From: Marinibactrum halimedae
Lineage (GTDB): Bacteria; Pseudomonadota; Gammaproteobacteria; Pseudomonadales; Cellvibrionaceae
Reading direction: 5' to 3'
Length of the DNA: 64,000 nucleotides
Assembly (NCBI RefSeq): GCF_021234875.1
Contig: NZ_JAJQVM010000003.1
Location: 83,541 to 147,540, forward strand
Below, in pieces: positions 21,001-32,796 of this stretch. Positions within the stretch are counted from its first letter, which is position 1. Every line of letters begins with the position of its first letter. Under the pieces are notes generated by a model that had not been told where the DNA came from, searched no databases, and saw only the letters and a list, made by a program, of their open reading frames with translations. The position numbers and the translations under genes are program-made.

Positions 21001-22023
21001 GGATTTCATAATACGGGAACACGTCAAACTCAAGGGGTAATCGTAATGAGTATTGATGATGGTATCGGTTTATTGGATGCGGGCTTAACCGATATTGACC
21101 CGAATTATGATGCGTTAGTGGTGGTGGTAAATGGCACAGCGCAATCGCAATCGCATCGTATTCCAACGGCACAAGGTTTTTCTCTGCACCCGGTATTGGC
21201 TTCGTCGGTGGACGCCACGGTTCGCACTTCAACCTTTACCTATGATGCCTCAACTAACTCTGGTGAATTTACAGTGCCAGCCCAGACGATGGCGGTGTTT
21301 GTAAAGGCCCAAGGGGCTACACAAGGCGAAGGGTTGGCTGCCGATGCCACCAGTGGTGAACCGGATGTGGCACCGTTTGGTGGGACGACGGTATTTATTC
21401 GTGGCTCCATGAATGACTGGGGTGAAGTGGATATCTTAGAATACCAAAGTGCAGGAATTTACCGACTGGAGCGCACATTAACGACGGGAGATTATGAATT
21501 TAAAGTCGCCAGTTCAGATTGGAGTACGGTGGACTTGGGGGGGAGTGGCTCTGCAGTGGTATTGGGTACACCCCAAAATCTCATCTCAGCCGGGAGTAAT
21601 ATTCCCCTTTCTATTGCGCAAGATGGTCAATACGTTTTCACCGTTGATGCTTTAGACATTAATAACCCCACGATTACGGTGAATGAAAAAGTACCCTTTG
21701 ATGCAACGACGATTTATGTGCGAGGCAGTTTAAATGGGTGGAGTACGGATAATCCAATGACCTACAGCGGGAATAACCTATATACCACCAGCATGAGTTT
21801 GGCGGTAGGGGATTATGAATTTAAAATTGCTTCAGAAGATTGGACAACGGTGGATTTTGGTGGGAATGGTACAGACAATGCCGTTGTGCTAGATACACCA
21901 AAAACGTTAACGGCAGTAGGTGCTAATTTAACGTTAACCATTTCGGTAGCGGGAAATTATCAGTTCTTTATTAATGCAGCCGATAGCGCCAATCCTAACG
22001 TGACCATCAGGGCAGTGCCGTAG
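18004..22023 (+). CDS. pulA: type I pullulanase (GH13 alpha-1,6-glucosidase) lipoprotein with two tandem C-terminal carbohydrate-binding modules
   Basis: GH13 motifs (YNHT, GFRFDVMGH, EGWNFGDD). Lipobox LLLLGVVSC. Two roughly 100-aa repeats at the C-terminus (GDYEFKVASSDWSTVDLGG / GDYEFKIASEDWTTVDFGG). The start could be 17989 or 18004. Confidence 0.85.
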   Translation: MGVLKRIVVRFSKFPFLKDGLLKKIILSLLLLGVVSCGGSGNDTESGSTLFTCNQPLVISESGNSCVEPPSLECPTPLVPDADNVMCIPAVDPTLPEPSIQPGDNQAVLYYNRGDGVYDNWKLHIWNDNGAPCDAYSDEQLNGVDWNNGVVHSGVDPNYGAYWILALKDGFSECANFIIHDADEKENCGQDKRLFLTGERMTFALQEVCDVYNTPILSLGVSVAGASAIWVSENTLLWDAPTDAAQYRLHVSSDAGLNFDSEAGVTNGRVTSLAPVEFTSELTSQFPHLSSYTPFSHNENRNWVTAALKGELIAVAYDANNAPIAATRVQIAEVLDDVFTSGDNDANEATLGIQYENIGDSAQRNISAQLWAPTAQQVRIKIFSSDKTLLDTQAMTLDEATGIWRATGSNWDRQFYRYEVTAFHPASNAIEVMETTDPYSVSLSTNGEYSQFVNLSDTELKPIGWDTHNIPTLDAWEDAIIYEGHVRDFSIWDESTSVDNRGKYLAFTETNSVPMQHLQSLVNNGLNVLHLLPTNDITTVNERGAERVDLTDTVEKLCSLNNAAPVCGVENGSSILRDVLASYDPASTDAQALVNSLRGLDGFNWGYDPHHFGTPEGSYATDPDGVARIIEMRAMIQSLHQMGLRVISDVVYNHTASSGLNPNSVLDKVVPGYYHRLNETSGAVENSTCCDNTAPERVMMSKLMTDTLVIWAQHYKFDGFRFDVMGHIPKSEILAAQAAVLAVDSDNHFYGEGWNFGDDVRDGKRFEQATQANMAGTEISTFNDRIRESVRSADLFMENGSLLEQDFIRISMAGTLKDYIFQDQNGLSVRADSVFWNSQPAGYGEDPADIMNYVSKHDNETLWDILQTNLPSSESLESRVRLQNIAIAIPLVSQGIPFLQFGGDFLRSKSLDRNTYDAGEWFNDVDFTLNSSNWNIGLPLAQDNESKWDNMRALIANPQSQPQPSHLQFASQAFQEFLSIRSNSALFRLQNKEEVLARIGFHNTGTRQTQGVIVMSIDDGIGLLDAGLTDIDPNYDALVVVVNGTAQSQSHRIPTAQGFSLHPVLASSVDATVRTSTFTYDASTNSGEFTVPAQTMAVFVKAQGATQGEGLAADATSGEPDVAPFGGTTVFIRGSMNDWGEVDILEYQSAGIYRLERTLTTGDYEFKVASSDWSTVDLGGSGSAVVLGTPQNLISAGSNIPLSIAQDGQYVFTVDALDINNPTITVNEKVPFDATTIYVRGSLNGWSTDNPMTYSGNNLYTTSMSLAVGDYEFKIASEDWTTVDFGGNGTDNAVVLDTPKTLTAVGANLTLTISVAGNYQFFINAADSANPNVTIRAVP

Positions 22024-22463: not shown

Positions 22464-23099
22464 ATGACAAACCGCCGTAAATACCCTCGTACCCCACACT
22501 TACCGTGGTCACCCGGTTTCAACCACGATGATGTTCGTACGCTCAATGTTAAAGCCTTTGAAGGCAAAAGAATTGTTGTCACAGAAAAAATGGATGGTGA
22601 AAACACCATTCTTTACCGTGATGGCCTCCATGCTCGGTCTCTAGACAGCCGTCATCACCCTTCTCGTGATTGGGTGAAGCAATGGCATTCAACGATTGCC
22701 CATGAGATTCCAAAGGGGTGGCGAGTATGTGGTGAGAATTTATATGCACAGCACTCAATCACTTATACCGACTTACTCAGTTATTTTTACGGTTTTTCTC
22801 TTTGGAATGATAAAAATTATTGCTTAGGCTGGGAGGAGACCCTCGAGTGGTTCGATCTATTGAATATTGCTGTGCCAACGGTTTTTTATCATGGCATCTG
22901 GGATGAAGAACTGATTAAAGCGATTTCCGTCAATGAACAGAAAGTTGAGGGCTATGTGGTGCGTATCGTAGAGTCTTTTGCTTACGATGCCTTCTCACGA
23001 TCTGTGGCTAAATGGGTGCGTAGCAACCACGTACAAACGGATGAGCATTGGATGTTTATGGAACTTGTGCCGAATGGACTGGAGCCTAATGGAGGTTAA
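22464..23099 (+). CDS. small ATP-dependent polynucleotide (RNA) ligase, Rnl family
   Basis: KxDG nucleotidyltransferase motif I (TEKMDGEN) and an N-terminal KYPRTPHL motif. GGAGGA RBS 6 nt upstream of the ATG. Forms the conserved ligase plus HD-Pnk pair. Confidence 0.8.
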   Translation: MTNRRKYPRTPHLPWSPGFNHDDVRTLNVKAFEGKRIVVTEKMDGENTILYRDGLHARSLDSRHHPSRDWVKQWHSTIAHEIPKGWRVCGENLYAQHSITYTDLLSYFYGFSLWNDKNYCLGWEETLEWFDLLNIAVPTVFYHGIWDEELIKAISVNEQKVEGYVVRIVESFAYDAFSRSVAKWVRSNHVQTDEHWMFMELVPNGLEPNGG

Positions 23100-23100
23100 G

Positions 23101-24374
23101 ATGAATGACAAAACGCTTAGTCATTGGTTGGAAAGTTTATCCCTTGCAGCAACCCCAGATATTGATGAATGCATTGACACTTTAGGTGACCATATATCCT
23201 GGTTGTATGAATTTAAAGACACACAACAAGATCCAGAGTGGCATGCAGAGGGTGATGTCCATATCCATACTGGGATGGTACTGAATGAGCTTTATGATCT
23301 ATTAGGTAGCCAAGCTCGACATATTACTGGCGGTCGACGGCAAGCTTTGATACTGGCTGCTCTATTGCATGACATCGGAAAACCCAAATGTACCAAGGCT
23401 ATTGAGATTAAGGGTATACACCGAATTGCATCACCACAGCATGAGAGTATCGGTCGCTCATACTTAGCGTTTGCCTTACAAACGTTACCGCTTTCTTTCG
23501 AGGTTTATTGGCAGGTACTGGGGCTTGTGGGAGAGCATCATATGCCCAAACTATTAGCGGTGAAGAACATGTCGCGTGGTCAATACTTGGCGTTATCACG
23601 CCGGACGGATACAGAGCTGTTGTATTGGTTAGAGGTTGCCGACATGAGAGGGAGAAAATGCCCTGATTTGTCACTTCAGTTGTCGCACCTTGATGAATTT
23701 GCCTTGTTCGCCGAAGAATACAACGTTTGGGGCAAAGCATTTATGTGGCCTCAATCTGCATTAATCGGGGAGTCTGATACGGCAAGGCACTATGTTTATG
23801 CAAGCGGTTTACAAGCTATGGAACAGGATCGTATTTTTCATCCGGATGAAGCTTTAGCAATCGCCTATCAACATAAAGATCAGCATCCTCAAGTCATGGT
23901 CATGTGTGGCCCTAGTGGCTCGGGTAAGTCGACGTGGATTGCTCAACATGCTTCAGAGTATGAGGTTATATCGCTGGATGAATTAAGACAGGAGGTTAAT
24001 GGAAACCGTAGTAACCAAAAAACAAAGGACAAATTTTACACTTGGCTAAGGATCGTTTTAAAGACAGTTTGCGCCGAAAAGCGAAAGTGATTTGGGATGC
24101 AACCAATCTCCGTAGTGACTTTCGCAGTATGATCATTGAGCTTGCTGAAGCTTATCATGCTCTGGTGACAATGGTTGTCTTTCTATTGCCGGAAGACGAG
24201 CTATTGAAAGCGGATCAACAACGTCAATACAGTGTAGGTTCCCAGGTATTGCGGGCTCAAATTGATAGTTATCAATTCCCCTTGGTCAATGAGTGTCACC
24301 GTATGATAGTCGTAGGTGTTAAGGGCAAAGAATGTTTTCGCACGGGGTTTGTTGATGACAAGTCCATTTATTAA
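23101..24374 (+). CDS. HD-Pnk: N-terminal HD 2',3'-phosphoesterase domain plus C-terminal P-loop 5'-OH polynucleotide kinase, interrupted by a -1 frameshift (pseudogene or sequencing error)
   Basis: HD motif (…LLHDIGK…) and Walker A (GPSGSGKST) lie in frame 1 up to 24090. The kinase continuation (…KVIWDATNL…) is in another frame (24042..24374). The shift maps to an A6 run around 24016-24021. Confidence 0.7.
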
Positions 24375-24646
24375 ATACCCACGAACGCAGTCATTGTCTG
24401 AAACTCAGTTTTGCGATGATGATTTGGCCTTACCAGGGGGTGATAGCTGGGTAATAGAAGAAAAAATGGATGGTACACAATTAGGTTTGTCATTTAATGG
24501 AAGGGCTATATATAAAAATGGAGTCAGATCGCCATGTGCTGAAACGCTATAAATGGGTGCGCCCAGAGTTTGTGCGTTTTATCATTAAAAAAGCTGAGCA
24601 TTGGCGAGAAAGAAAGATTACTTTAAATAAACGATTAGGGGAGTAA
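24355..24646 (+). pseudogene. decayed second copy of the Rnl-family ligase (N-terminal about 65 aa, then a frame change to a C-terminal KWVR…EHW remnant)
   Basis: MTSPFIKYPRTQSL…EEKMDGTQ parallels the upstream ligase N-terminus. After a stop at 24552, the +1 frame encodes YKWVRPEFVRF…EHWR, matching the ligase C-terminus (AKWVRSNHVQTDEHW). The central roughly 100 aa are missing. Confidence 0.55.
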
Positions 24647-24773
24647 TGACTTTTTTTATTGATTTAGCTTAAGCTTGGTTGCTTTTTACCTACCCTGAGG
24701 GTGTGCGGGCTAAACGATATATTTTAAGTATGGTGCGAGATACACTTATTTTCCTGAGTAAGCTACTGGAGGC

Positions 24774-25787
24774 TCATGACACCAATACTTTCCAGCTATT
24801 CGATGCGAGCTTGCTTATGGTGATTTTAGTCCCCACGAATGCTTGAATAATTTCAGCATTGGTCTTCAAGTGCAGACTGGGTTCTATCGTCGTAAAACTA
24901 CCACCCGCTCCAAGCGCCATAGGCAGTAGTAGCTGATCAGCCAGATACTCACCAATAACGGAATTCGAAGAAAGATACGTTTTGAGTTTATCGGCGGCGT
25001 TATCCGCAACAACTTCAGCGGAAACACTTCTCTCCCCAATTACCTCTACACACTCTGTGATCTCCTCGTATTTAGCCTGTAATGAGAGAATGTTTCCGGG
25101 GCCAACGGATTTCACAAGTCGTTTATTTAAATCGACACATATCGGCGAAAAGTGATCGGTCACTCTGCGCAACTCTCTATCCACCACGTGGCCAGGAATT
25201 TGTGCAGAGGTTGCAACAGCTGTTAAGGATAATAATTCTCCACGCCTCTCATTTTGGTAGCTGACTATTTTGTCTGTAGAACGGATATAAGCTTTCCAAG
25301 CACCTCCGCCAGCGGGATAAAAACCAAAACGTTCAAGTTCTGCCTCTATCATCACGCCCATTTTTTCCAATTCAGGTAAAAATGACTGCCGAATAAAATC
25401 AAAACTTGGCGCCATCCCATTATGCGTTCCACCTTCTAATAATAATTCACTGTCGCTGCCGGCCAGCAGTAACGGCAAATAAACGGTTTGAAACACCAAG
25501 GTAGTGCTTCCTGCTGAACCAACGGCAAAATGGTATTTTCCCGCCCGAACCTTTCCAGGAATAAATTCAACGAGAGTAGAGCCTAGAGTTGCTCCCTTAA
25601 CTTTCGCCTCACAAATTTCTTGCGCCGCCTTTAAGCACGTTAAGTGCTGACGTAAAAGCCCTGGCTTTTTTCTGCCTGCACGGATATTTGTTATGGTAAC
25701 TGGCTCACCGAGACACATTGAAAGCGTCAAGCTAGTGCGAAAAACCTGACCCCCACCTTCACCTTGAGAGCCATCAATTATTTTCAT
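24774..25787 (-). CDS. rtcA: RNA 3'-terminal phosphate cyclase
   Basis: MKIIDGSQGEGGGQVFRTSL… N-terminus, 337 aa. Downstream of and co-oriented with rtcB. Confidence 0.9.
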   Translation of the reverse strand: MKIIDGSQGEGGGQVFRTSLTLSMCLGEPVTITNIRAGRKKPGLLRQHLTCLKAAQEICEAKVKGATLGSTLVEFIPGKVRAGKYHFAVGSAGSTTLVFQTVYLPLLLAGSDSELLLEGGTHNGMAPSFDFIRQSFLPELEKMGVMIEAELERFGFYPAGGGAWKAYIRSTDKIVSYQNERRGELLSLTAVATSAQIPGHVVDRELRRVTDHFSPICVDLNKRLVKSVGPGNILSLQAKYEEITECVEVIGERSVSAEVVADNAADKLKTYLSSNSVIGEYLADQLLLPMALGAGGSFTTIEPSLHLKTNAEIIQAFVGTKITISKLASNSWKVLVS

Positions 25788-25877
25788 CTTACTTCCTTAG
25801 TTTCTCTTATCCTTAAACGCTTATTTCTTTAAACTTTATTTTCTTAAGCAAGGGGCCATCCTTAGCCAGGAGCTTGC

Positions 25878-27104
25878 TCACCCCTTAACACATACCACCT
25901 GCTTTAGGGTATACACCACCTCGACCAAATCTTTTTGAGCCTCCATGACTTTTTCGATTGGCTTATACGCGGAGGGTGTTTCGTCAATAACACCTTCATC
26001 CTTGCGGCATTCTACGCCTTCGGTGGCTTGGCGATGTTCTTCCAATGACACTAACTTTTTAGCCTTGGTTCGCGACATAATTCGTCCCGCTCCGTGGCTG
26101 CAACTACAGAAGCTTTCTTCATTTCCTAATCCACGGACAATAAATGAGCGAGCCCCCATACTTCCTGGAATAATACCCATCTCACCTTCACGGGCACGCA
26201 CAGCTCCCTTACGAGTAACCAAAACATTTTTTCCATAATGGTTTTCTCTAGACACATAATTATGATGGCAATTTACCGCTTCCATGCGTGCGTCAAAGTC
26301 TCGATGCAGGGTACTCTTAACGGCATCAATCACCCGAGCCATCATCACTTCACGATTAATGCGCGCGAAGTTTTGCGCCCACTCCACCGCCTCAACGTAC
26401 TCATCAAAGTGATCCGTACCTTCAGGCAAATACGCCAAATCAGAATCTGGAAGTTGGATATGCCAACGCTCCATATCTTTTTTCGCTTTTTCAATAAAGT
26501 GCGTGCCGATTCGGTTTCCCACACCACGTGAGCCGCTGTGTAACATTAACCAAACGCTATCATGCTCATCCAAACACATTTCAATAAAGTGATTTCCCGT
26601 CCCAAGCGTTCCTAAGTGATTAATGTTATTGGTATTCTTTAGTACTCGATGCTTATCTTTTAATACATCAAACTGTGCTGATAAAGGCATCCAAGCGGTC
26701 ATGACATCATCAGGAATATTGGCCCAAGCGCCTTTATCGCGGCCTCCTCTGGCGCGAGCGGAGCGTCCATGGGGCACAGCGCGTTCAATGGCATTTCGAA
26801 TTCCTGATAAGTTATCGGGTAAATCGGAAGCGGTTAAGCTGGTTCGCACTGCCATCATTCCGCAGCCAATGTCCACGCCAACCGCTGCTGGTATCACTGC
26901 GCCTAAGGTTGGAACAACACTCCCAATCGTTGCACCTTTGCCTAAATGAACATCCGGCATTGCCGCGATCCACTTATGAATAAACGGCAAGCGAGAGATG
27001 TTTTTTAACTGCTGTCTGGCTTCGGGCTCAAAAGAAACACCTTTGGTCCACGACTTAATCGGAACACCGCCTTCCTGCATCACTTCATAAGCATTTTCAA
27101 TCAC
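25878..27104 (-). CDS. rtcB: RNA-splicing ligase RtcB (3'-phosphate/5'-OH ligase)
   Basis: 408 aa with PDVHLGKG and other conserved His/Cys metal ligands. Confidence 0.9.
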   Translation of the reverse strand: MIENAYEVMQEGGVPIKSWTKGVSFEPEARQQLKNISRLPFIHKWIAAMPDVHLGKGATIGSVVPTLGAVIPAAVGVDIGCGMMAVRTSLTASDLPDNLSGIRNAIERAVPHGRSARARGGRDKGAWANIPDDVMTAWMPLSAQFDVLKDKHRVLKNTNNINHLGTLGTGNHFIEMCLDEHDSVWLMLHSGSRGVGNRIGTHFIEKAKKDMERWHIQLPDSDLAYLPEGTDHFDEYVEAVEWAQNFARINREVMMARVIDAVKSTLHRDFDARMEAVNCHHNYVSRENHYGKNVLVTRKGAVRAREGEMGIIPGSMGARSFIVRGLGNEESFCSCSHGAGRIMSRTKAKKLVSLEEHRQATEGVECRKDEGVIDETPSAYKPIEKVMEAQKDLVEVVYTLKQVVCVKG

Positions 27105-27189
27105 TGCTCAATCCTCTTCATGTTTATTGGTTAGCAGGCGTATTTCGTTGATAGGCCTGCTTTATTGATATTCATGTTGACATGAGCGT

Positions 27190-27207
27190 AGCGAAGACAG
27201 TGCCAAA
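27190..27207 (-). promoter_or_regulatory. sigma-54 (-24/-12) promoter for rtcBA
   Basis: The minus strand reads TGGCAC-TGTCT-TCGCT, with GG and GC elements spaced 10 nt apart. It is about 85 nt upstream of the rtcB ATG and faces divergent rtcR. Confidence 0.6.
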
Positions 27208-27362
27208 CTTTTGATATCTAACCAAAAAACACTTAACTCATTGTTTTTAATGATAAAAAATGTAATAACGTGGATAAGTTGTCATCCATCTATTTTATCA
27301 ATGCATATCTATTTCGATAGATTTATAATAGTTTGGATAATGGTATTAATAGGAGTTACCCC

Positions 27363-28994
27363 ATGAAAACCGTCGCTATTAGCATACTCGGCACCGTACT
27401 CGATAAACGAGGCAAGCGCGGTAAGCGCTGGGATAAATGGCGACCTACGGTTTCGATGTTTCAACACGATGACTTGATGATTGATCGTTTAGATCTCGTA
27501 TTTGATAGGAACTCCCAGCGGCTTGCAGACCAAGTCACCGAGGATATTTATCATGCATCACCTGAAACAAAAGTGGTTCATCACTACGTTAACTTTGAAC
27601 ATCCTTGGGACTTCGAAACGGTCTATAGCGAGCTGTTAGATTTTTGTAGGAGCTACACATTTAAGCCAAGCAGAGAGCAGTATTTAACCCATATCACCAC
27701 AGGCACGCACGTCGCCCAAATATGCTTATATCTGTTAACGGAGGCGGGGTACTTACCAGGAAAACTCCTTCAAACCTCTCCCCCGAGAAAAAACAGTGCC
27801 GGAGAAAACGAAACTCATTCCGGAAAAAACCAAAGCAGTGCCGGCGAATACCAAATCATCGATTTGGATCTGTCCAAGTACGACCAAATTGCTTCGCGCT
27901 TTCAAAAAGAACACAAAGAGGGAACCTCCTATCTGAAAGGGGGAATTGAAACCAATAACCCTGCGTTCAACACGATGATTGAACAGCTAGAGAAGGTTTC
28001 CGTTCGATCCAATGAACCCATATTAATCACAGGGCCAACGGGCGCAGGCAAATCTCAACTTGCACAAAGGGTCTACGAACTCAGAAAGCATAGAGGCATT
28101 ATTGAAGGAAATCTTGTCGCCGTTAACTGTGCAACGTTACGAGGCGAAAACGCTATGTCAGCGCTGTTTGGCCATAAAAAGGGGGCTTTTACTGGCGCCA
28201 CCACCGATAGACCGGGGCTACTAAAAGAAGCGGATCAAGGCCTTCTTTTTTTAGATGAAATTGGCGAACTCGGCATTGATGAACAGGCTATGTTGCTGCG
28301 TGCCATTGAAGATAAACGTTTTATCCCATTTGGGGCAGATAAAGAAACCAGCAGTAACTTTCAACTCATAGCAGGGACCAATAAAGATCTTGCGAAATAC
28401 GCTCATGAAGGTAAATTTCGGGAAGATCTGCTAGCAAGAATAGACCTTTGGGAATACAACCTCCCATCTTTAAAAGAACGACCGGAAGACATTGAGCCCA
28501 ACATTGAATACGAAATTGAAAAATTCGCCTCAAAGAGCGGTCAACTCATCAGCTTTAATAAAACAGCTCGGGACATCTATCTGAGTTTCAGCCAGTCTCC
28601 CGAAGCTAAGTGGTCGGCCAATTTTCGTGATCTTAATGCGAGTATTACACGACTTGGCACCCTGGCGGATGGAGGACGAATTACCGCCGGTCTAGTGAAA
28701 GAAGAAATCGATCGCCTGAAAACCAAATGGAAAGTCTCCAAGCAATCAAACGACAACCCAATCGAAATGACAAAAGATCTGATTGGCGAAGCCAGATTCA
28801 ACCACCTCGACCTCTACGATCAAATTATCTTAGCCGGAATTACAAAGGTGTGCCGAAACTCAAATTCAATGGCAGAAGCCGGTAGAACTTTGTTTAATCA
28901 AAGTCGCACAACCAAAAAGTCTACGAATGATTCTCACCGCGTTCGACAGCTACTAGAAAAGTACGGTGTTTCGTTTGATGAGCTGAACCGATAA
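27363..28994 (+). CDS. rtcR: sigma-54-dependent transcriptional activator RtcR (CARF domain, AAA+ domain, HTH)
   Basis: N-terminal CARF-like domain, GAFTGA-type AAA+ (ITGPTGAGKS…GAFTGA), divergent from rtcBA. ATG at 27363 with an AGGAG RBS. Confidence 0.85.
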   Translation: MKTVAISILGTVLDKRGKRGKRWDKWRPTVSMFQHDDLMIDRLDLVFDRNSQRLADQVTEDIYHASPETKVVHHYVNFEHPWDFETVYSELLDFCRSYTFKPSREQYLTHITTGTHVAQICLYLLTEAGYLPGKLLQTSPPRKNSAGENETHSGKNQSSAGEYQIIDLDLSKYDQIASRFQKEHKEGTSYLKGGIETNNPAFNTMIEQLEKVSVRSNEPILITGPTGAGKSQLAQRVYELRKHRGIIEGNLVAVNCATLRGENAMSALFGHKKGAFTGATTDRPGLLKEADQGLLFLDEIGELGIDEQAMLLRAIEDKRFIPFGADKETSSNFQLIAGTNKDLAKYAHEGKFREDLLARIDLWEYNLPSLKERPEDIEPNIEYEIEKFASKSGQLISFNKTARDIYLSFSQSPEAKWSANFRDLNASITRLGTLADGGRITAGLVKEEIDRLKTKWKVSKQSNDNPIEMTKDLIGEARFNHLDLYDQIILAGITKVCRNSNSMAEAGRTLFNQSRTTKKSTNDSHRVRQLLEKYGVSFDELNR

Positions 28995-29375
28995 GTAGAT
29001 GAGTGGATATGGAGCTCTCCATAAGCTCGATAGGCACAGCGTCTATATAATTAACGGCTTACTGGTGTGCTGTTCAATAGTTAAGAACAAGCCACCAAAC
29101 GATATTTAAGTTGCACGGATTGTGAGACTAGCGGCATCTAAAATAAATCTCTTCTACAAAATCACTTGACTTTAACACCTCGGTTCATACAATCCGCTCA
29201 AACTTAATTTGAGATTGTAATGACTTTACTACGTTGTAAGCACAGCAGTTTTTCTATTTGGACGCCTGGGATGATATGTCATCCACAGGAGGATCTCGCA
29301 CGTCCACACTTTGCCTGCTAGACCAAAGCTCTGGTAGGCAATACGCCTTCCAGCTTTAGTTTAAGTATTCAAACA

Positions 29376-29418
29376 AAAACCCGGAAGGCGATTGACGCTT
29401 TTCGGGTTTTTTTTTGCC
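29376..29418 (+). terminator. orphan intrinsic terminator (hairpin plus T9)
   Basis: CCCGGAAGGCG-ATTGA-CGCTTTTCGGG followed by TTTTTTTTT, about 400 nt past the rtcR stop with no ORF upstream. Confidence 0.5.
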
Positions 29419-30021
29419 CATGGATGGGCTTATGCAGCGAAGCACAGGATGTGCGAGAGCGTATTTGCCCGAAGGAAATTAAAGATTGAAATTAGGGCTC
29501 CCAACGGGTGGTTGCGGAAGCAACAAAGTATATGAATATACTTTTCACGCTCATGAACCACCAAATTTAGGATATCAACAGGAAAGAGAAATTTATTTTA
29601 ATTGAGGCTTAGAACATTTTTGTATAGATGAATAGTGTGATTTAACCGGTAGAGAAATTTTGAATTCTAGTCAATTTTTCTCCGATAACCCCTTTCCGAA
29701 ATATTGCCATAAGTTGCAGTAGGGGATTGCTCACCCTAAAAAAAATAATGTTATATAACGTTCAGAAATACACTTAAATAATCACCAAAAAATTAAATTT
29801 GCAAAGAAAAAAATCAGCACGTATCGTTTAAAACAGATTCGCAACACGAACAAAAACAGTAAGTAAGAAATTATGAATTTTATCTGTCAGCAACATAACA
29901 AGCATTTTTATTTATCGGACTGGTCCACACCGTCCATAGAGACAAATGTACTCCGTAGTGGGCTAGAACACCCCTGCGTGAAAATTGGTGATAGCAATTT
30001 GATGTAAATAGCTTTCAATAA

Positions 30022-30082
30022 CGGAAGGCTGTGCCTTCCGGTGAATGAGAGAAACCCCGGTTGGCAACAATCGGGGTTTTTT
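30022..30082 (+). terminator. double hairpin plus U-tract (sRNA 3'-end-like)
   Basis: An 8-bp stem (CCGGAAGGC tgt GCCTTCCGG) is followed by a 9-bp stem with a GNRA loop (CCCCGGTTG gcaa CAATCGGGG) and then TTTTTT. No protein gene lies upstream on this strand for about 1 kb. Confidence 0.55.
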
Positions 30083-30227
30083 ATGTTCAGGATGAACGGT
30101 ATGCCTTGAGCGCATGGATGCGCAGGAGCGGCTCTGTTCAGAATGAATGGTATACCGTGGGCTAGGGCAAAAACATACTTTTTACCCAACCGGGAACGCC
30201 AGTTTAGCAACCAGTAGGAGTAATGAG

Positions 30228-30785
30228 ATGGGCAGAATCTTGCGCTTAGATATCTCCGGTACACCAACTTCTTGGCTTTCGCGGGAAGAAGCGGCCGTTT
30301 TATATGTCAAAAATTTGGTGCAGTGGGAAGTTGGAGATAAAAGTTTAGTTATCTTCGGAGGAACAAACCGATTCACCGGAAAACAATCTTCGTTGAAAAT
30401 CAGTCCAGTTATTGCCACTCGAGGTGATTCACATCGAAAAAAATTGGTTTCTGGGTTTAATAATCGAATGCTATTTCGCCGAGATAATTATCATTGTATG
30501 TACTGCGGTGACAAATTTAGTCATGCAGAATTGACGCGAGATCACGTAGTACCGCGTGCACAAGGAGGGTTAGATATTTGGGAAAATGTTGTTGCGGCTT
30601 GTGGAAAGTGCAATCACTTTAAAGCAGACCGAACACCTGAGCAAGCGGGTATGAAGTTACTAGCCATACCTTTTAGGCCAAATATATTTGAATCCATGTA
30701 CTTGGCACAACACACAATATTAGCGGATCAAATGGAATATTTGGAAAAACAATTTTCAGGTAAAAGGATTTGGAAAGCGGCGTAA
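30228..30785 (+). CDS. HNH endonuclease
   Basis: C-terminal HNH motif (YCG…RDHVVPRAQGG…N…CGKCNHFK). ATG at 30228 with an AGGAG RBS. Confidence 0.8.
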   Translation: MGRILRLDISGTPTSWLSREEAAVLYVKNLVQWEVGDKSLVIFGGTNRFTGKQSSLKISPVIATRGDSHRKKLVSGFNNRMLFRRDNYHCMYCGDKFSHAELTRDHVVPRAQGGLDIWENVVAACGKCNHFKADRTPEQAGMKLLAIPFRPNIFESMYLAQHTILADQMEYLEKQFSGKRIWKAA

Positions 30786-30918
30786 ATTTTCTACGTCGTA
30801 TTCCATACAGAAGTTTATATCTTCGCCGAGAGTTAGCGGAACTGGTTCTGTATACCAGTCTGGCACAAGCGTTACTAACGTATTGTGTACCAATTCGAAA
30901 GCGGGAATAAACTGGATG

Positions 30919-30995
30919 GTTTTTGTAGCTCATTTGGGTAGAGCAATAGACTCATAATCTATCGGTAGCGGGTTCGATTCCCGTCAAAAACACCA
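30919..30995 (+). tRNA. tRNA-Met-like (anticodon CAT) with an unusual all-A/U acceptor stem
   Basis: Hand-folded cloverleaf: acceptor GUUUUUG/CAAAAAC, D-arm GCUC-AUUUGGGUA-GAGC, anticodon stem AUAGA/UCUAU with loop CUCAUAA, T-arm GCGGG-UUCGAUU-CCCGU, discriminator A, encoded CCA. Confidence 0.7.
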
Positions 30996-31038
30996 TGTCG
31001 TCTCCAAAACGACTCTTATGGTAATGGTCGAGAGACCT

Positions 31039-31063
31039 TGAGGTTCGAATCCTCACAAGACTT
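31039..31063 (+). other. tRNA 3'-fragment-like element (T-arm plus acceptor 3' strand, no 5' half)
   Basis: TGAGG-TTCGAAT-CCTCA followed by CAAGACT. No complementary 5' acceptor strand could be found upstream. Confidence 0.3.
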
Positions 31064-31421
31064 TCACTCTTGTTTAAAAATCTACAAGAGGCCCATGGTC
31101 TTGAATTGTGTTAACCAGCCGCAAATGGGGTTCGTTCAACACATGAAGATTTTGCTCCATACAAAATCTGTATTTCCACCATCTGTGGTGGTCATCAAGA
31201 CGCCGACAATACAGCCGGGTTAGATGGATCGAATCAGCACGATGACATTGTATGAATGGAATGTGTTTATACACCACATCAATAGATAAGAATGATTGTT
31301 GGGTGAGTGATAAATAAATCCAATCCTCTGGAATGAATTCCTGCTGATTTCAAATTTGACCCCCCTGGATTCGAGGGTGGGCCTCGCCACATCTTTAAAT
31401 GATTAGGCAAAAGGATATACG

Positions 31422-32579
31422 ATGTTATTTTTTAAAACAGTGGATATTGCCGACAGTGAACGAGCCTTGCTCTTTGATCGAGATCGGCTACAAAAAGTAC
31501 TTGGTCCGGGTCGACACCGATTGTCTACCCTTGGGCGAGAGTTAAAAGTAGAAAAATTTGATATTACGTCAGTGCGTTTTGAACACCCGAAATTGAAATT
31601 TTTGGTGCGTCAATACCAAACACTTCTTGAAGACGCTATAGATGTGTTTGAACTAAATGATAACGAAGTGGGTATTATCTACCGAGATCAAAAAATCTCA
31701 GATATTTTACCTCCGGGTAATCTATTGGTGACTTGGAAAGGCGCTGAAGATGTTCGAGTGGATATCGTCGATATCACTAAAAACTATGCACTCAATGATG
31801 AGCTGGTTGCACTCTTAGGTCGAGGCGTAAAAATCGGTGCAAGTCGACAAGTTGTCAATGCCATTAACTATGCAGAAGTACCAGATGAACATGTAGGTCT
31901 TCTTCAAGTGAACAGTAAGTTAGAAAGTGTACTGAAGACCGGTGCTTACGCTTTCTGGAAATACAATCGTTCAATCGTCGTTAAGCTGCTTGACTTGCGC
32001 GTACAGACCATCGATGTTAGCGGTCAGGAAATTTTGACTAAAGATCGTGTGAGCTTGCGTATTAACCTGTCCGCTAGTTACAACATTGTCGATCCGGAAG
32101 CCGTCGCACTAAAATTGAAAGACTATGCGAACTTTATTTATCTGGAGCTTCAGTTGCGATTGCGAGAAGCTGTGAGCACAAAAACGCTTGATGAATTACT
32201 TGAAGATAAAGATGCTCTGAATGCAGTTATCGCAAATGGCGCAAGTGAGAAGCTTTCCGAGTTTGGTATTCAATTGCGAAGAGTGGGTGTGAAAGACATT
32301 ATTCTACCCGGCGATATGAAAGTGATCTTAAATCAGGTGGTTGAAGCCCAAAAAGAAGCCGAAGCCAACGTCATTAAGCGACGAGAAGAAACTCAAGCTA
32401 TGCGATCACTACATAACACTGCGAAGGTAATGGAAAACAACCCAGTGTTATTACGATTGAAGGAGCTAGAGGCACTAGAACGAATCACTGCAAAAATCGA
32501 TAAGATTTCTGTTTACGGTGGCTTGGATAGCGTCCTAAATGACATGGTTAAGCTAGCGCCGTCCAAATCGGGTCAATAA
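31422..32579 (+). CDS. SPFH/band-7 domain protein (slipin/flotillin-like)
   Basis: Central SPFH core followed by a coiled-coil (…ILNQVVEAQKEAEANVIKRREETQAM…). Confidence 0.8.
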   Translation: MLFFKTVDIADSERALLFDRDRLQKVLGPGRHRLSTLGRELKVEKFDITSVRFEHPKLKFLVRQYQTLLEDAIDVFELNDNEVGIIYRDQKISDILPPGNLLVTWKGAEDVRVDIVDITKNYALNDELVALLGRGVKIGASRQVVNAINYAEVPDEHVGLLQVNSKLESVLKTGAYAFWKYNRSIVVKLLDLRVQTIDVSGQEILTKDRVSLRINLSASYNIVDPEAVALKLKDYANFIYLELQLRLREAVSTKTLDELLEDKDALNAVIANGASEKLSEFGIQLRRVGVKDIILPGDMKVILNQVVEAQKEAEANVIKRREETQAMRSLHNTAKVMENNPVLLRLKELEALERITAKIDKISVYGGLDSVLNDMVKLAPSKSGQ

Positions 32580-32796
32580 AACCTCCCGTTCGAAAGAGCG
32601 GGAGTTATGTGCTCGATTCTTTATTGCTGCAACTTTCTGAAAGCCGTTTTTCGATATTTCGCTGAATATTTCTTCCTTTGGCAGTTAACGCCCGCTTTGT
32701 GTTGGTTTGGGTCGCAGCGTAACGGAGGAGCCAGCCGCTTCGCGGCGAGAGTGCGGTTTCCCCCACTAATGTGGAGGTGGCTTCGGGATCGTCAAT

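Follow-up and report, generated by a model that had tools for sequence, protein, structure and literature searches.

A predicted RNA-repair cluster of Marinibactrum halimedae pairs an apparently complete Rtc system with a decaying ligase–HD-Pnk cassette

Overall organization of the RNA-repair cluster

The analysed window, a stretch of 64,000 nucleotides (nt) from Marinibactrum halimedae (Cellvibrionaceae; assembly GCF_021234875.1, contig NZ_JAJQVM010000003.1, positions 83,541 to 147,540), contains two sets of predicted RNA-repair genes. The Rtc arm is composed of rtcB, rtcA and the regulator gene rtcR, and the classic arm is composed of lig1, HD-Pnk and lig2. Our analysis points to an intact Rtc arm next to a decaying classic arm, with M. 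halimedae most likely relying on Rtc alone and with a pairing that was inherited from, or exchanged among, marine Gammaproteobacteria whose RNA-repair modules lie in clusters. In the same reading the cluster spans ~22.46 to ~32.58 kb, past an HNH endonuclease gene and a tRNA gene, and we assign the two statements jointly a probability of about 0.75. The cluster reaches ~32.6 kb because the tRNA and Band-7 genes (30919–32579) form the known RtcB-associated b7a-tRNA/Band-7 module. An earlier note, made from the sequence alone, had taken the HNH gene and the tRNA as the boundary; this boundary does not hold, since the tRNA and the Band-7 gene belong to that module and the HNH–tRNA–Band-7 block also occurs in other Cellvibrionaceae. 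The positions and families that the earlier note had given for the genes (Rnl ligase, HD-Pnk, RtcA/RtcB and the sigma-54/CARF activator RtcR) are confirmed by profile matches. The features of the cluster are the following.

22464–23099, plus strand: lig1, minimal ATP-dependent RNA ligase of 211 amino acids (aa), intact (PF09414, E=8e-30)
23101–24374, plus strand: HD-Pnk pseudogene in two frames; HD phosphoesterase at the N-terminus, P-loop 5'-OH polynucleotide kinase at the C-terminus (PF01966, AAA_33)
24017–24022, plus strand: A6 run at the HD-Pnk frameshift; relatives have A7 (CAA AAA AAC = Q K N)
24355–24649, plus strand: lig2 pseudogene, second RNA-ligase paralogue, detected as tblastn remnants with a frame change at ~24497
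24774–25787, minus strand: rtcA, RNA 3'-terminal phosphate cyclase, intact (PF01137, E=1e-74; NF003246)
25878–27104, minus strand: rtcB, ligase joining RNA 3'-phosphate (3'-P) or 2',3'-cyclic phosphate (2',3'>P) to 5'-OH ends, intact (PF01139, E=7e-135)
27190–27205, minus strand: putative sigma-54 (-24/-12) promoter of rtcBA, TGGCAC-N5-TCGCT, TGGCACTGTCTTCGCT, called on position and conservation
27306–27320, minus strand: inverted repeat CTATCGAAATAGATA, candidate RtcR upstream activating site; similar repeats in loci L022 and L007
27363 (alternative start 27333)–28994, plus strand: rtcR, sigma-54 enhancer-binding activator, intact (PF06956, PF00158, NF038308)
30919–30995, plus strand: b7a-tRNA, tRNA-like gene with anticodon CAT (ARAGORN; Rfam tRNA, 69.6 bits)
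31422–32579, plus strand: Band-7/SPFH protein (PF01145, E=2e-31)

The Rtc arm and its promoter

RtcA and RtcR both exceed the cutoffs of their NCBIfam equivalog models (NF003246, 393 bits versus 352; NF038308, 760 bits versus 650), and residues 32–408 of RtcB cover profile positions 1–426 of PF01139, which is the whole model. RtcB is 80–86% identical to the RtcB proteins of Kangiellaceae and Agarilytica. The rtcA gene follows rtcB in the same orientation after 90 nt, whereas rtcR is divergent from rtcBA and separated from rtcB by a 228-bp spacer. RtcR joins an RtcR/CARF-type sensor (PF06956, E=1e-78) with a sigma-54 AAA+ domain (PF00158, E=1e-46).

The predicted promoter TGGCACTGTCTTCGCT lies in this spacer at 27205–27190 on the minus strand, 85 nt before the rtcB start, and it is the sole -24/-12 match with one mismatch in the region that is both intergenic and upstream of a gene. 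An identical 16-mer is found in Agarilytica sp. (L022), and the Kangiellaceae loci L007 and L008 have TGGCAC-N5-TCGCT; in all, four relatives conserve the element. Because the -24/-12 consensus by itself is not enriched across the window (37 matches against 37.5 expected), the call of a sigma-54 promoter rests on position and conservation. In addition, inverted repeats of the form CTATCG-N-GATA(G) are present beside rtcR in the window (27280–27330), in L022 (CTATCGAAAAAGATAG) and twice in L007 (TATCTTTTTCGATA). They are candidate RtcR binding sites, a function that we infer from the sequence.

By analogy with Escherichia coli and Salmonella, tRNA breaks ending in 2',3'>P would bind the CARF-type domain of RtcR, which would then oligomerise and open the sigma-54 promoter at 27190–27205. 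RtcB would use GTP to seal 3'-P or 2',3'>P ends to 5'-OH ends, and RtcA would regenerate the cyclic ends. This mode of action is carried over from the literature: induction by tRNA halves with 2',3'>P is known for Salmonella (PMC7790460), and CARF binding, oligomerisation, sigma-54 activation, GTP-dependent sealing and end cyclisation are taken from PMC7790460, PMC3458531 and PMC3854526. The window resembles the E. coli and Salmonella rtcBA operons in having the same three proteins, a divergent rtcR and a -24/-12 promoter before rtcB, and the gene order rtcB–rtcA is that of E. coli. It differs from Salmonella in that no Rsr or Y-RNA genes were seen in the stretch examined here, and from both in having a Band-7 gene and a tRNA-like gene, which are displaced across rtcR and stand behind the HNH gene. 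The Rtc arm looks complete and functional at the sequence level, and has the appearance of a standard RtcR/sigma-54 rtcBA member with a Band-7/b7a-tRNA accessory.

The classic arm: lig1, HD-Pnk and lig2

Lig1 keeps all residues that are invariant in 29–36 homologues, namely motif I EKMDGEN (K42-x-D44-G45), G90-E91, EGYVVR (162–167; E162-G163) and KWVR (183–186; K183/R186). In its AlphaFold2 model, with a predicted local distance difference test (pLDDT) score of 90.2, the protein is composed of the nucleotidyltransferase domain alone, with no appended oligonucleotide-binding (OB) or C-terminal domain. The model matches T4 Rnl2 (2hvr, 1s68), NgrRnl (Naegleria Rnl5; 5cot, 6vt4) and archaeal Rnl3 (5d1o) with a Foldseek probability of 1.00 and a template modelling (TM) score of ~0.6, and it also resembles the adenylyltransferase domain of tRNA ligase. 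Moreover, lig1 matches phage RNA-ligase PHROGs with E~1e-75. By sequence and predicted fold, lig1 is an intact ATP-dependent RNA ligase of the Rnl type. A promoter-pattern scan revealed no sigma-54 site before lig1, and a generic promoter/terminator scan, with no enrichment over shuffled sequences, yielded nothing decisive on the operon structure of lig1.

The start codon of HD-Pnk (23101) follows the stop of lig1 (23099) after 1 nt. The HD (PF01966) and AAA_33 matches are spread over two open reading frames (ORFs) of 329 aa (23101–24090) and 110 aa, and the frame changes inside CAAAAAAC at 24016–24023. At exactly this site three intact relatives carry CAAAAAAAC, with an A7 tract. Addition of one A yields a 424-aa protein that is collinear from end to end with homologues of 412–456 aa (48–60% identity) and in which H56, H90-D91, H114, H146, D181, the GxGKS motif at 273–277, D293, D333 and R338 are all kept. 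The homologues are annotated merely as "AAA family ATPase". Among solved structures, the kinase part is closest to the corresponding domain of Clostridium thermocellum Pnkp (4gp6, E=4e-11). The lesion leaves the P-loop and the catalytic Asp293 in one ORF and the DATN motif and arginine lid in the other, which precludes synthesis of the kinase as a single chain. The earlier note had described an HD domain fused to a 5'-OH kinase; both domains are indeed present, but they lie in two ORFs and become a fusion only after one A is added.

The same split is found in the deposited annotation of M. halimedae (GCA_030160855.1, contig BSPD01000042.1), whose gene calls agree with the window and whose protein GLS26245.1 is identical to the 329-aa ORF. 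In a second M. halimedae assembly lig1 (MCD9457929) and rtcA (MCD9457930) have consecutive protein accessions, so presumably no protein was called between them. From the sequence comparison, HD-Pnk is a pseudogene member of its family with a 1-nt deletion in the A7 tract.

Downstream of HD-Pnk, lig2 is reduced to two remnants, which correspond in tblastn to residues 5–52 (24364–24498) and 194–238 (24497–24631) of a 240-aa Pleionea homologue. The remnants are in two different frames, and ~141 internal codons (~420 bp) are lost. The Pleionea protein itself matches PF09414 (E=2e-31), and intact lig2 proteins of 240–256 aa are present in Pleionea and Hahella. Judged by this comparison, lig2 is an unambiguous pseudogene with its catalytic core lost, and the readable remains of the classic arm are lig1 and the HD portion only.

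In intact relatives, the HD domain would remove 2',3'>P or 3'-P to leave a 3'-OH, the Pnk domain would phosphorylate the 5'-OH, and the resulting 3'-OH/5'-P ends would be joined by an ATP-dependent ligase. Bacteriophage T4 Pnkp with Rnl1 and the bacterial Pnkp-Hen1 system share this chemistry of 2',3'>P removal, 5'-OH phosphorylation and ATP-dependent sealing, and the window kinase is homologous to the kinase domain of C. thermocellum Pnkp. Unlike these systems, the cassette has an HD domain as predicted phosphoesterase in place of a DxDxT or calcineurin-type phosphatase, a ligase that consists of the nucleotidyltransferase domain alone, and no Hen1 methyltransferase. The architecture matches that of the Runella slithyformis ligase–HD-Pnk cluster (Munir & Shuman 2017; PMC6097658), in which a minimal ATP-dependent ligase also abuts an HD(N)-Pnk(C) protein, the ligase ORF overlapping HD-Pnk in Runella and a 1-nt spacer separating the two in the window. 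This architecture also occurs in a clade of Bacteroidota/Cytophagales (~376 aa, ~30% identical to the window protein). The likeness to Runella is one of architecture, not of direct sequence comparison; in a search seeded with a Saprospiraceae homologue, Runella was absent among the top 120 matches. In contrast to the Runella cluster, the stretch examined showed no Tpt1 or methyltransferase-HIT genes nearby, the clade of the window has a second ligase downstream, and in the window HD-Pnk is frameshifted and lig2 internally deleted.

Distribution of the cassette and its pairing with rtcBA

To describe the neighbourhood of the cassette, 80 HD-Pnk loci were surveyed with one genome per species and flanks of 10 kb, along with 80 metagenome loci. 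A ligase lies directly upstream of HD-Pnk at 70 of the 77 genome loci with enough flank, and this arrangement occurs in Gammaproteobacteria, Cyanobacteria, Planctomycetota, Chlamydiales, Myxococcota, Deinococcota and Bacteroidota. An intact lig2 downstream of HD-Pnk is less widespread, being present at 7/67 genome loci and five metagenome loci. In most of 18 large viral contigs a ligase homologue is likewise located a short distance upstream of HD-Pnk. The viral HD-Pnk homologues are 24–40% identical and lie on jumbo-phage-like IMG/VR contigs (L083–L097, 55–600 kb; L084, 33 kb), and viral contig L087 (17.7 kb) contains HD-Pnk together with a lig2-like ligase and a gene of the RtcB family.

Canonical rtcB/rtcA(/rtcR) genes fall within the flanks at five of the 80 genome loci, which belong to three families: Kangiellaceae (L001, L007, L008), Agarilytica sp. 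(L022) and Algicola (L032). None were found near the cassette in the 80 metagenome loci. Random placement, with one rtcBA per 4.5-Mb genome, would give an expectation of 0.24 loci; under a Poisson model the five loci then have a probability of 6e-6, and counting three independent lineages instead gives 0.002. Two gene orders are observed. In Kangiellaceae and Agarilytica it is lig1 > HD-Pnk > ... < Band-7 < tRNA < rtcA < rtcB, rtcR >, and in Algicola it is < rtcA < rtcB, rtcR > lig1 > HD-Pnk >, with rtcR and lig1 co-directional and only 20 nt apart. Co-localisation of the two cassettes in other genomes, on which the earlier note had made its proposal depend, is therefore borne out by the survey (5/80 loci versus 0.24 expected).

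Other RNA-repair genes accompany the cassette as well. In Kangiellaceae, RtcB2 and a PrfH-like release factor are encoded just upstream of lig1, and RlaP and a metallo-beta-lactamase (MBL)-fold protein, possibly RNase Z-like, are encoded between the arms. RtcB2-PrfH is a ribosome/16S rRNA repair module (PMC9223846, PMC13166195); it stands immediately upstream of lig1–HD-Pnk in Kangiellaceae and in marine metagenome contigs, and is absent from the window. Clusters of RtcB2-PrfH with the cassette occur at seven or eight loci, and the module abuts the cassette at 4/80 metagenome loci. Because RtcB2-PrfH recurs beside lig1–HD-Pnk, the cassette appears to cluster habitually with repair systems of the RtcB family. 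RtcB2 (389 aa) and a PrfH-like release factor with a GGQ motif adjoin lig1–HD-Pnk in L007 (6932–9115), L008, L001, L038, L100–L102 and L104. The outcome is triple clusters that combine RtcB2-PrfH, Rnl–HD-Pnk and RtcBA/RtcR with RlaP, the MBL-fold protein and Band-7/tRNA.

Pairing with rtcBA is a real and recurrent minority arrangement within this wider clustering of RNA-repair modules. Each cassette is of an already known kind in all its components. Modular shuffling of RNA-repair genes is reportedly the theme of the 2016 work by Burroughs and Aravind. No text describing the exact pairing of both cassettes was found in a search that did not cover that work, which leaves the novelty of the combination unproven.

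The HNH–tRNA–Band-7 block and the history of the island

Three further features flank the cluster or lie within it.

Ending at 22023: pullulanase gene, preceding lig1
29165–30098, plus strand: conserved non-coding block, 85–91% identical to three Cellvibrionaceae
30228–30785, plus strand: HNH endonuclease of 185 aa (PF14279/PF01844)

The Band-7 gene of the window is 61% identical to the one that follows rtcA–tRNA in Agarilytica (L022), and in L001, L007, L008 and L022 a tRNA gene is located directly after rtcA and before Band-7. The tRNA of the window and those of the four relatives share one body, with 80–83% column identity and compensatory changes in the anticodon and T stems. Their anticodon loops differ (CUCAUAA, UAUUUAC, CAUUUAC, AAGUUAA), and the three Kangiellaceae copies (UUU, UUU, GUU) have A33 in place of the universal U33. 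Across the Band-7-associated tRNAs of the window and of L001, L007, L008, L022 and L181–L183, the anticodons vary by lineage (CAU, UUU, GUU). The acceptor stem of the window tRNA contains five consecutive U-A pairs. The variable anticodon loops, A33 and the U-A acceptor stem suggest a tRNA mimic or bait, not a decoding tRNA.

Such a tRNA-like gene beside Band-7 in RtcB systems is described as b7a-tRNA in bioRxiv 10.1101/312249, which cites Burroughs & Aravind 2016. The two are presumed cofactors, and Band-7 is a proposed scaffold or cofactor of RtcB systems. As in the module of that preprint, the Band-7 gene of the window has a tRNA-like gene immediately upstream, with an rtcB gene in the vicinity. 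Unlike there, the pair is not beside rtcA and instead follows the conserved HNH gene, and rtcB is 3.8 kb away from it, across rtcR, the non-coding block and the HNH gene. The local order is rearranged relative to the relatives, because the tRNA/Band-7 pair of the window stands on the other side of rtcR. L182 and L183 have no RtcB within 10 kb of the tRNA module.

Agarilytica rhodophyticola, Exilibacterium and several metagenome-assembled genomes (MAGs) encode HNH proteins with at least 90% identity to that of the window, all within one 90%-identity cluster. The order HNH–tRNA(CAT)–Band-7 is kept in L181 and L183, and L182 keeps HNH–tRNA(CAT). A mobile homing-endonuclease insertion was considered for the HNH gene and rejected on the at least 90% identity across Cellvibrionaceae genera with the same neighbours kept. 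The order in these three relatives is the non-coding block, an array of 22–26 tRNA genes, HNH and tRNA(CAT), with Band-7 next in A. rhodophyticola and the MAG. In the MAG two RlaP genes follow Band-7, and in A. rhodophyticola rtcB lies just upstream on the opposite strand. The tRNA arrays (L181, 6192–9974; L182, 5537–9974; L183, 5245–9974) are tightly packed and cover nearly all amino acids; a spare-tRNA set beside RNA-repair genes may be biologically meaningful. The window is without this 3.1-kb array, and the matching junction is at 30120–30186.

Nucleotide identities differ along the island. The HNH–tRNA–Band-7 part (30186–32609) is 84–88% identical to A. rhodophyticola, Exilibacterium and the MAG L183 and ~70% identical to L022. 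Within 25880–28681 the pattern differs: identity to L022 is 76% for rtcB and 69% for rtcR, and rtcB shares ~64% with A. rhodophyticola. By these identities, the history of the island is mosaic.

The earlier note had also regarded the block as accessory. Its patchy distribution is the one observation that speaks for this status; no integrase or flanking repeats were found around the block in the analysis of the window, and the GC content of the block (0.42–0.48) is like that of the remaining window, so that the block bears no mark of a mobile island. A search of 21.9–32.7 kb for repeats that could mark an inversion or island boundary returned only short chance-like matches besides a 16-nt EKMDG motif common to lig1 and lig2. 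In PADLOC, lig1, Band-7 and RtcB matched no defence-system model, HD-Pnk had only weak Cas3-HD matches and the HNH protein only generic HNH matches.

Functional interpretation

The reading of an intact Rtc arm next to a decaying classic arm has to be weighed against several observations that speak against it and against three other explanations. The HD-Pnk lesion is a single base within a homopolymer, where the missing base could be an error of sequencing, or low-level slippage could yield the intact protein, and the support from the second assembly is indirect, as it consists of consecutive accession numbers. Apart from this lesion nothing disrupts the HD-Pnk frames: downstream of the shift only 3 of 32 conserved columns deviate, compared with 1 of 93 upstream and up to 4 of 31 in intact homologues, so any inactivation would be recent. 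These points, together with the intact lig1 and the homologue-invariant residues kept on either side of the shift, favour a view in which both arms are functional as two complementary sealing pathways and the frameshift either stems from faulty assembly or is overcome by -1 slippage. A slip of the P-site tRNA-Lys from AAA (24019–24021) to AAA (24018–24020) would recreate the ancestral sequence N-Q-K-N-K-G-Q. We consider this view unlikely. Read in the upstream frame, the slippery heptamer does not fall into the canonical X XXY YYZ register, so that programmed -1 frameshifting at the A-run is kept only as a low-probability rival; the split also stands in the deposited record, and the consecutive accessions of the second assembly imply a pseudogene call there too. 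Above all, the ~420-bp deletion in the adjacent lig2 is unambiguous, so decay of the cassette is shown independently of the A-run. A dedicated dual response to RNA damage, as proposed in the earlier note, is consequently improbable in M. halimedae, because the HD-Pnk kinase is cut and lig2 is internally deleted, leaving the classic arm largely dead.

The distribution and orientation of the arms also count against a functional link between them. Pairing with rtcBA is a minority state among both the genome loci (5/80) and the metagenome loci (0/80), the two arms are convergent in the window with separate promoters and no sigma-54 site precedes lig1, and the local order is clearly rearranged in comparison with Agarilytica and Kangiellaceae, all of which would fit a chance juxtaposition through genome rearrangement. 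Such a coincidence is nevertheless quite improbable, given that the five loci observed are far above expectation and come from three families with two architectures, including the head-to-tail rtcR–lig1–HD-Pnk of Algicola, and that the cassette is also found near RtcB2-PrfH and RlaP and, on a viral contig, with an RtcB-family gene. A further explanation concerns the substrate, since the assignment of RNA and not DNA to lig1 and HD-Pnk draws on homology and context: lig1, HD-Pnk and lig2 may be, or may have been, a DNA-break end-healing and sealing system that is merely a neighbour of Rtc. In Deinococcus, HD-Pnk has a part in radiation and mitomycin C resistance, which would suit this explanation. 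Runella HD-Pnk is called a DNA/RNA end-healing enzyme in the title of Munir & Shuman 2017, as cited in PMC6097658, and according to that paper the Runella partner ligase formed the enzyme-AMP but sealed no tested substrate. On the other side, the predicted fold of lig1 is closest to RNA ligases (T4 Rnl2, NgrRnl, Rnl3 and the tRNA ligase adenylyltransferase domain) in line with its Pfam RNA_ligase match, and the recurrent neighbours RtcB, RtcA, RtcR, RtcB2-PrfH, RlaP and Band-7/b7a-tRNA are all concerned with RNA repair. A DNA-directed system therefore seems very doubtful here.

With the intact Rtc arm and the decaying classic arm as the preferred reading, the outcome for M. halimedae is mostly a corrected annotation, with one Rtc system, its tRNA-like/Band-7 accessory and two pseudogenes. 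The wider interest lies in the partner ligase of HD-Pnk, which is widespread: thousands of homologues come from many phyla and also from jumbo-phage-like contigs. The recurring neighbours of the cassette, RtcBA/RtcR, RtcB2-PrfH, RlaP and Band-7/b7a-tRNA, are contextual evidence that it acts on broken tRNA or rRNA of the ribotoxin type, and the intact orthologues of Kangiellaceae, Algicola and Agarilytica are worth study. A more speculative proposal, which we hold to be possible but on balance unlikely, is that marine Gammaproteobacteria build RNA-repair islands integrating Rnl–HD-Pnk(–Rnl') with RtcB systems, with ribotoxin-cut tRNA or rRNA as substrates. In such islands the two pathways would compete, with HD-Pnk removing the 2',3'>P end, which is both required by RtcB and sensed by RtcR, and the decay in M. 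halimedae would reflect selection against interference and not neutral loss.

Non-coding block and tRNA remnants

The interval between rtcR and the HNH gene comprises 1.2 kb without ORFs. Most of it is occupied by the 0.9-kb block at 29165–30098, which is 85–91% identical to DNA of A. rhodophyticola, Exilibacterium and a MAG, has no codon periodicity and, in the relatives, has its counterpart before the tRNA array. A sigma-70-like promoter is located at 29166–29193, and the block is divided into two sub-blocks that each end in a hairpin and T-run terminator (29375–29415 and 30020–30085). From these sequence features, the block may encode one or two non-coding RNAs. Rfam searches at the gathering threshold across the window and in E-value mode at 28.9–31.45 kb gave tRNA only; matches to His_leader and sroE were rejected as sub-threshold look-alikes of the terminators.

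Two tRNA-like remnants were seen in this region. The segment at 29490–29565 is degenerate and ends in ...CCACCA, with no ARAGORN call; a tRNA-Met(CAT) occupies this position in A. rhodophyticola and the MAG, and the segment is probably a tRNA pseudogene. At 31030–31062, ~40 nt after the b7a-tRNA gene, a T-arm-like sequence, GGTTCGAATCCTC, may be the remnant of a second tRNA.

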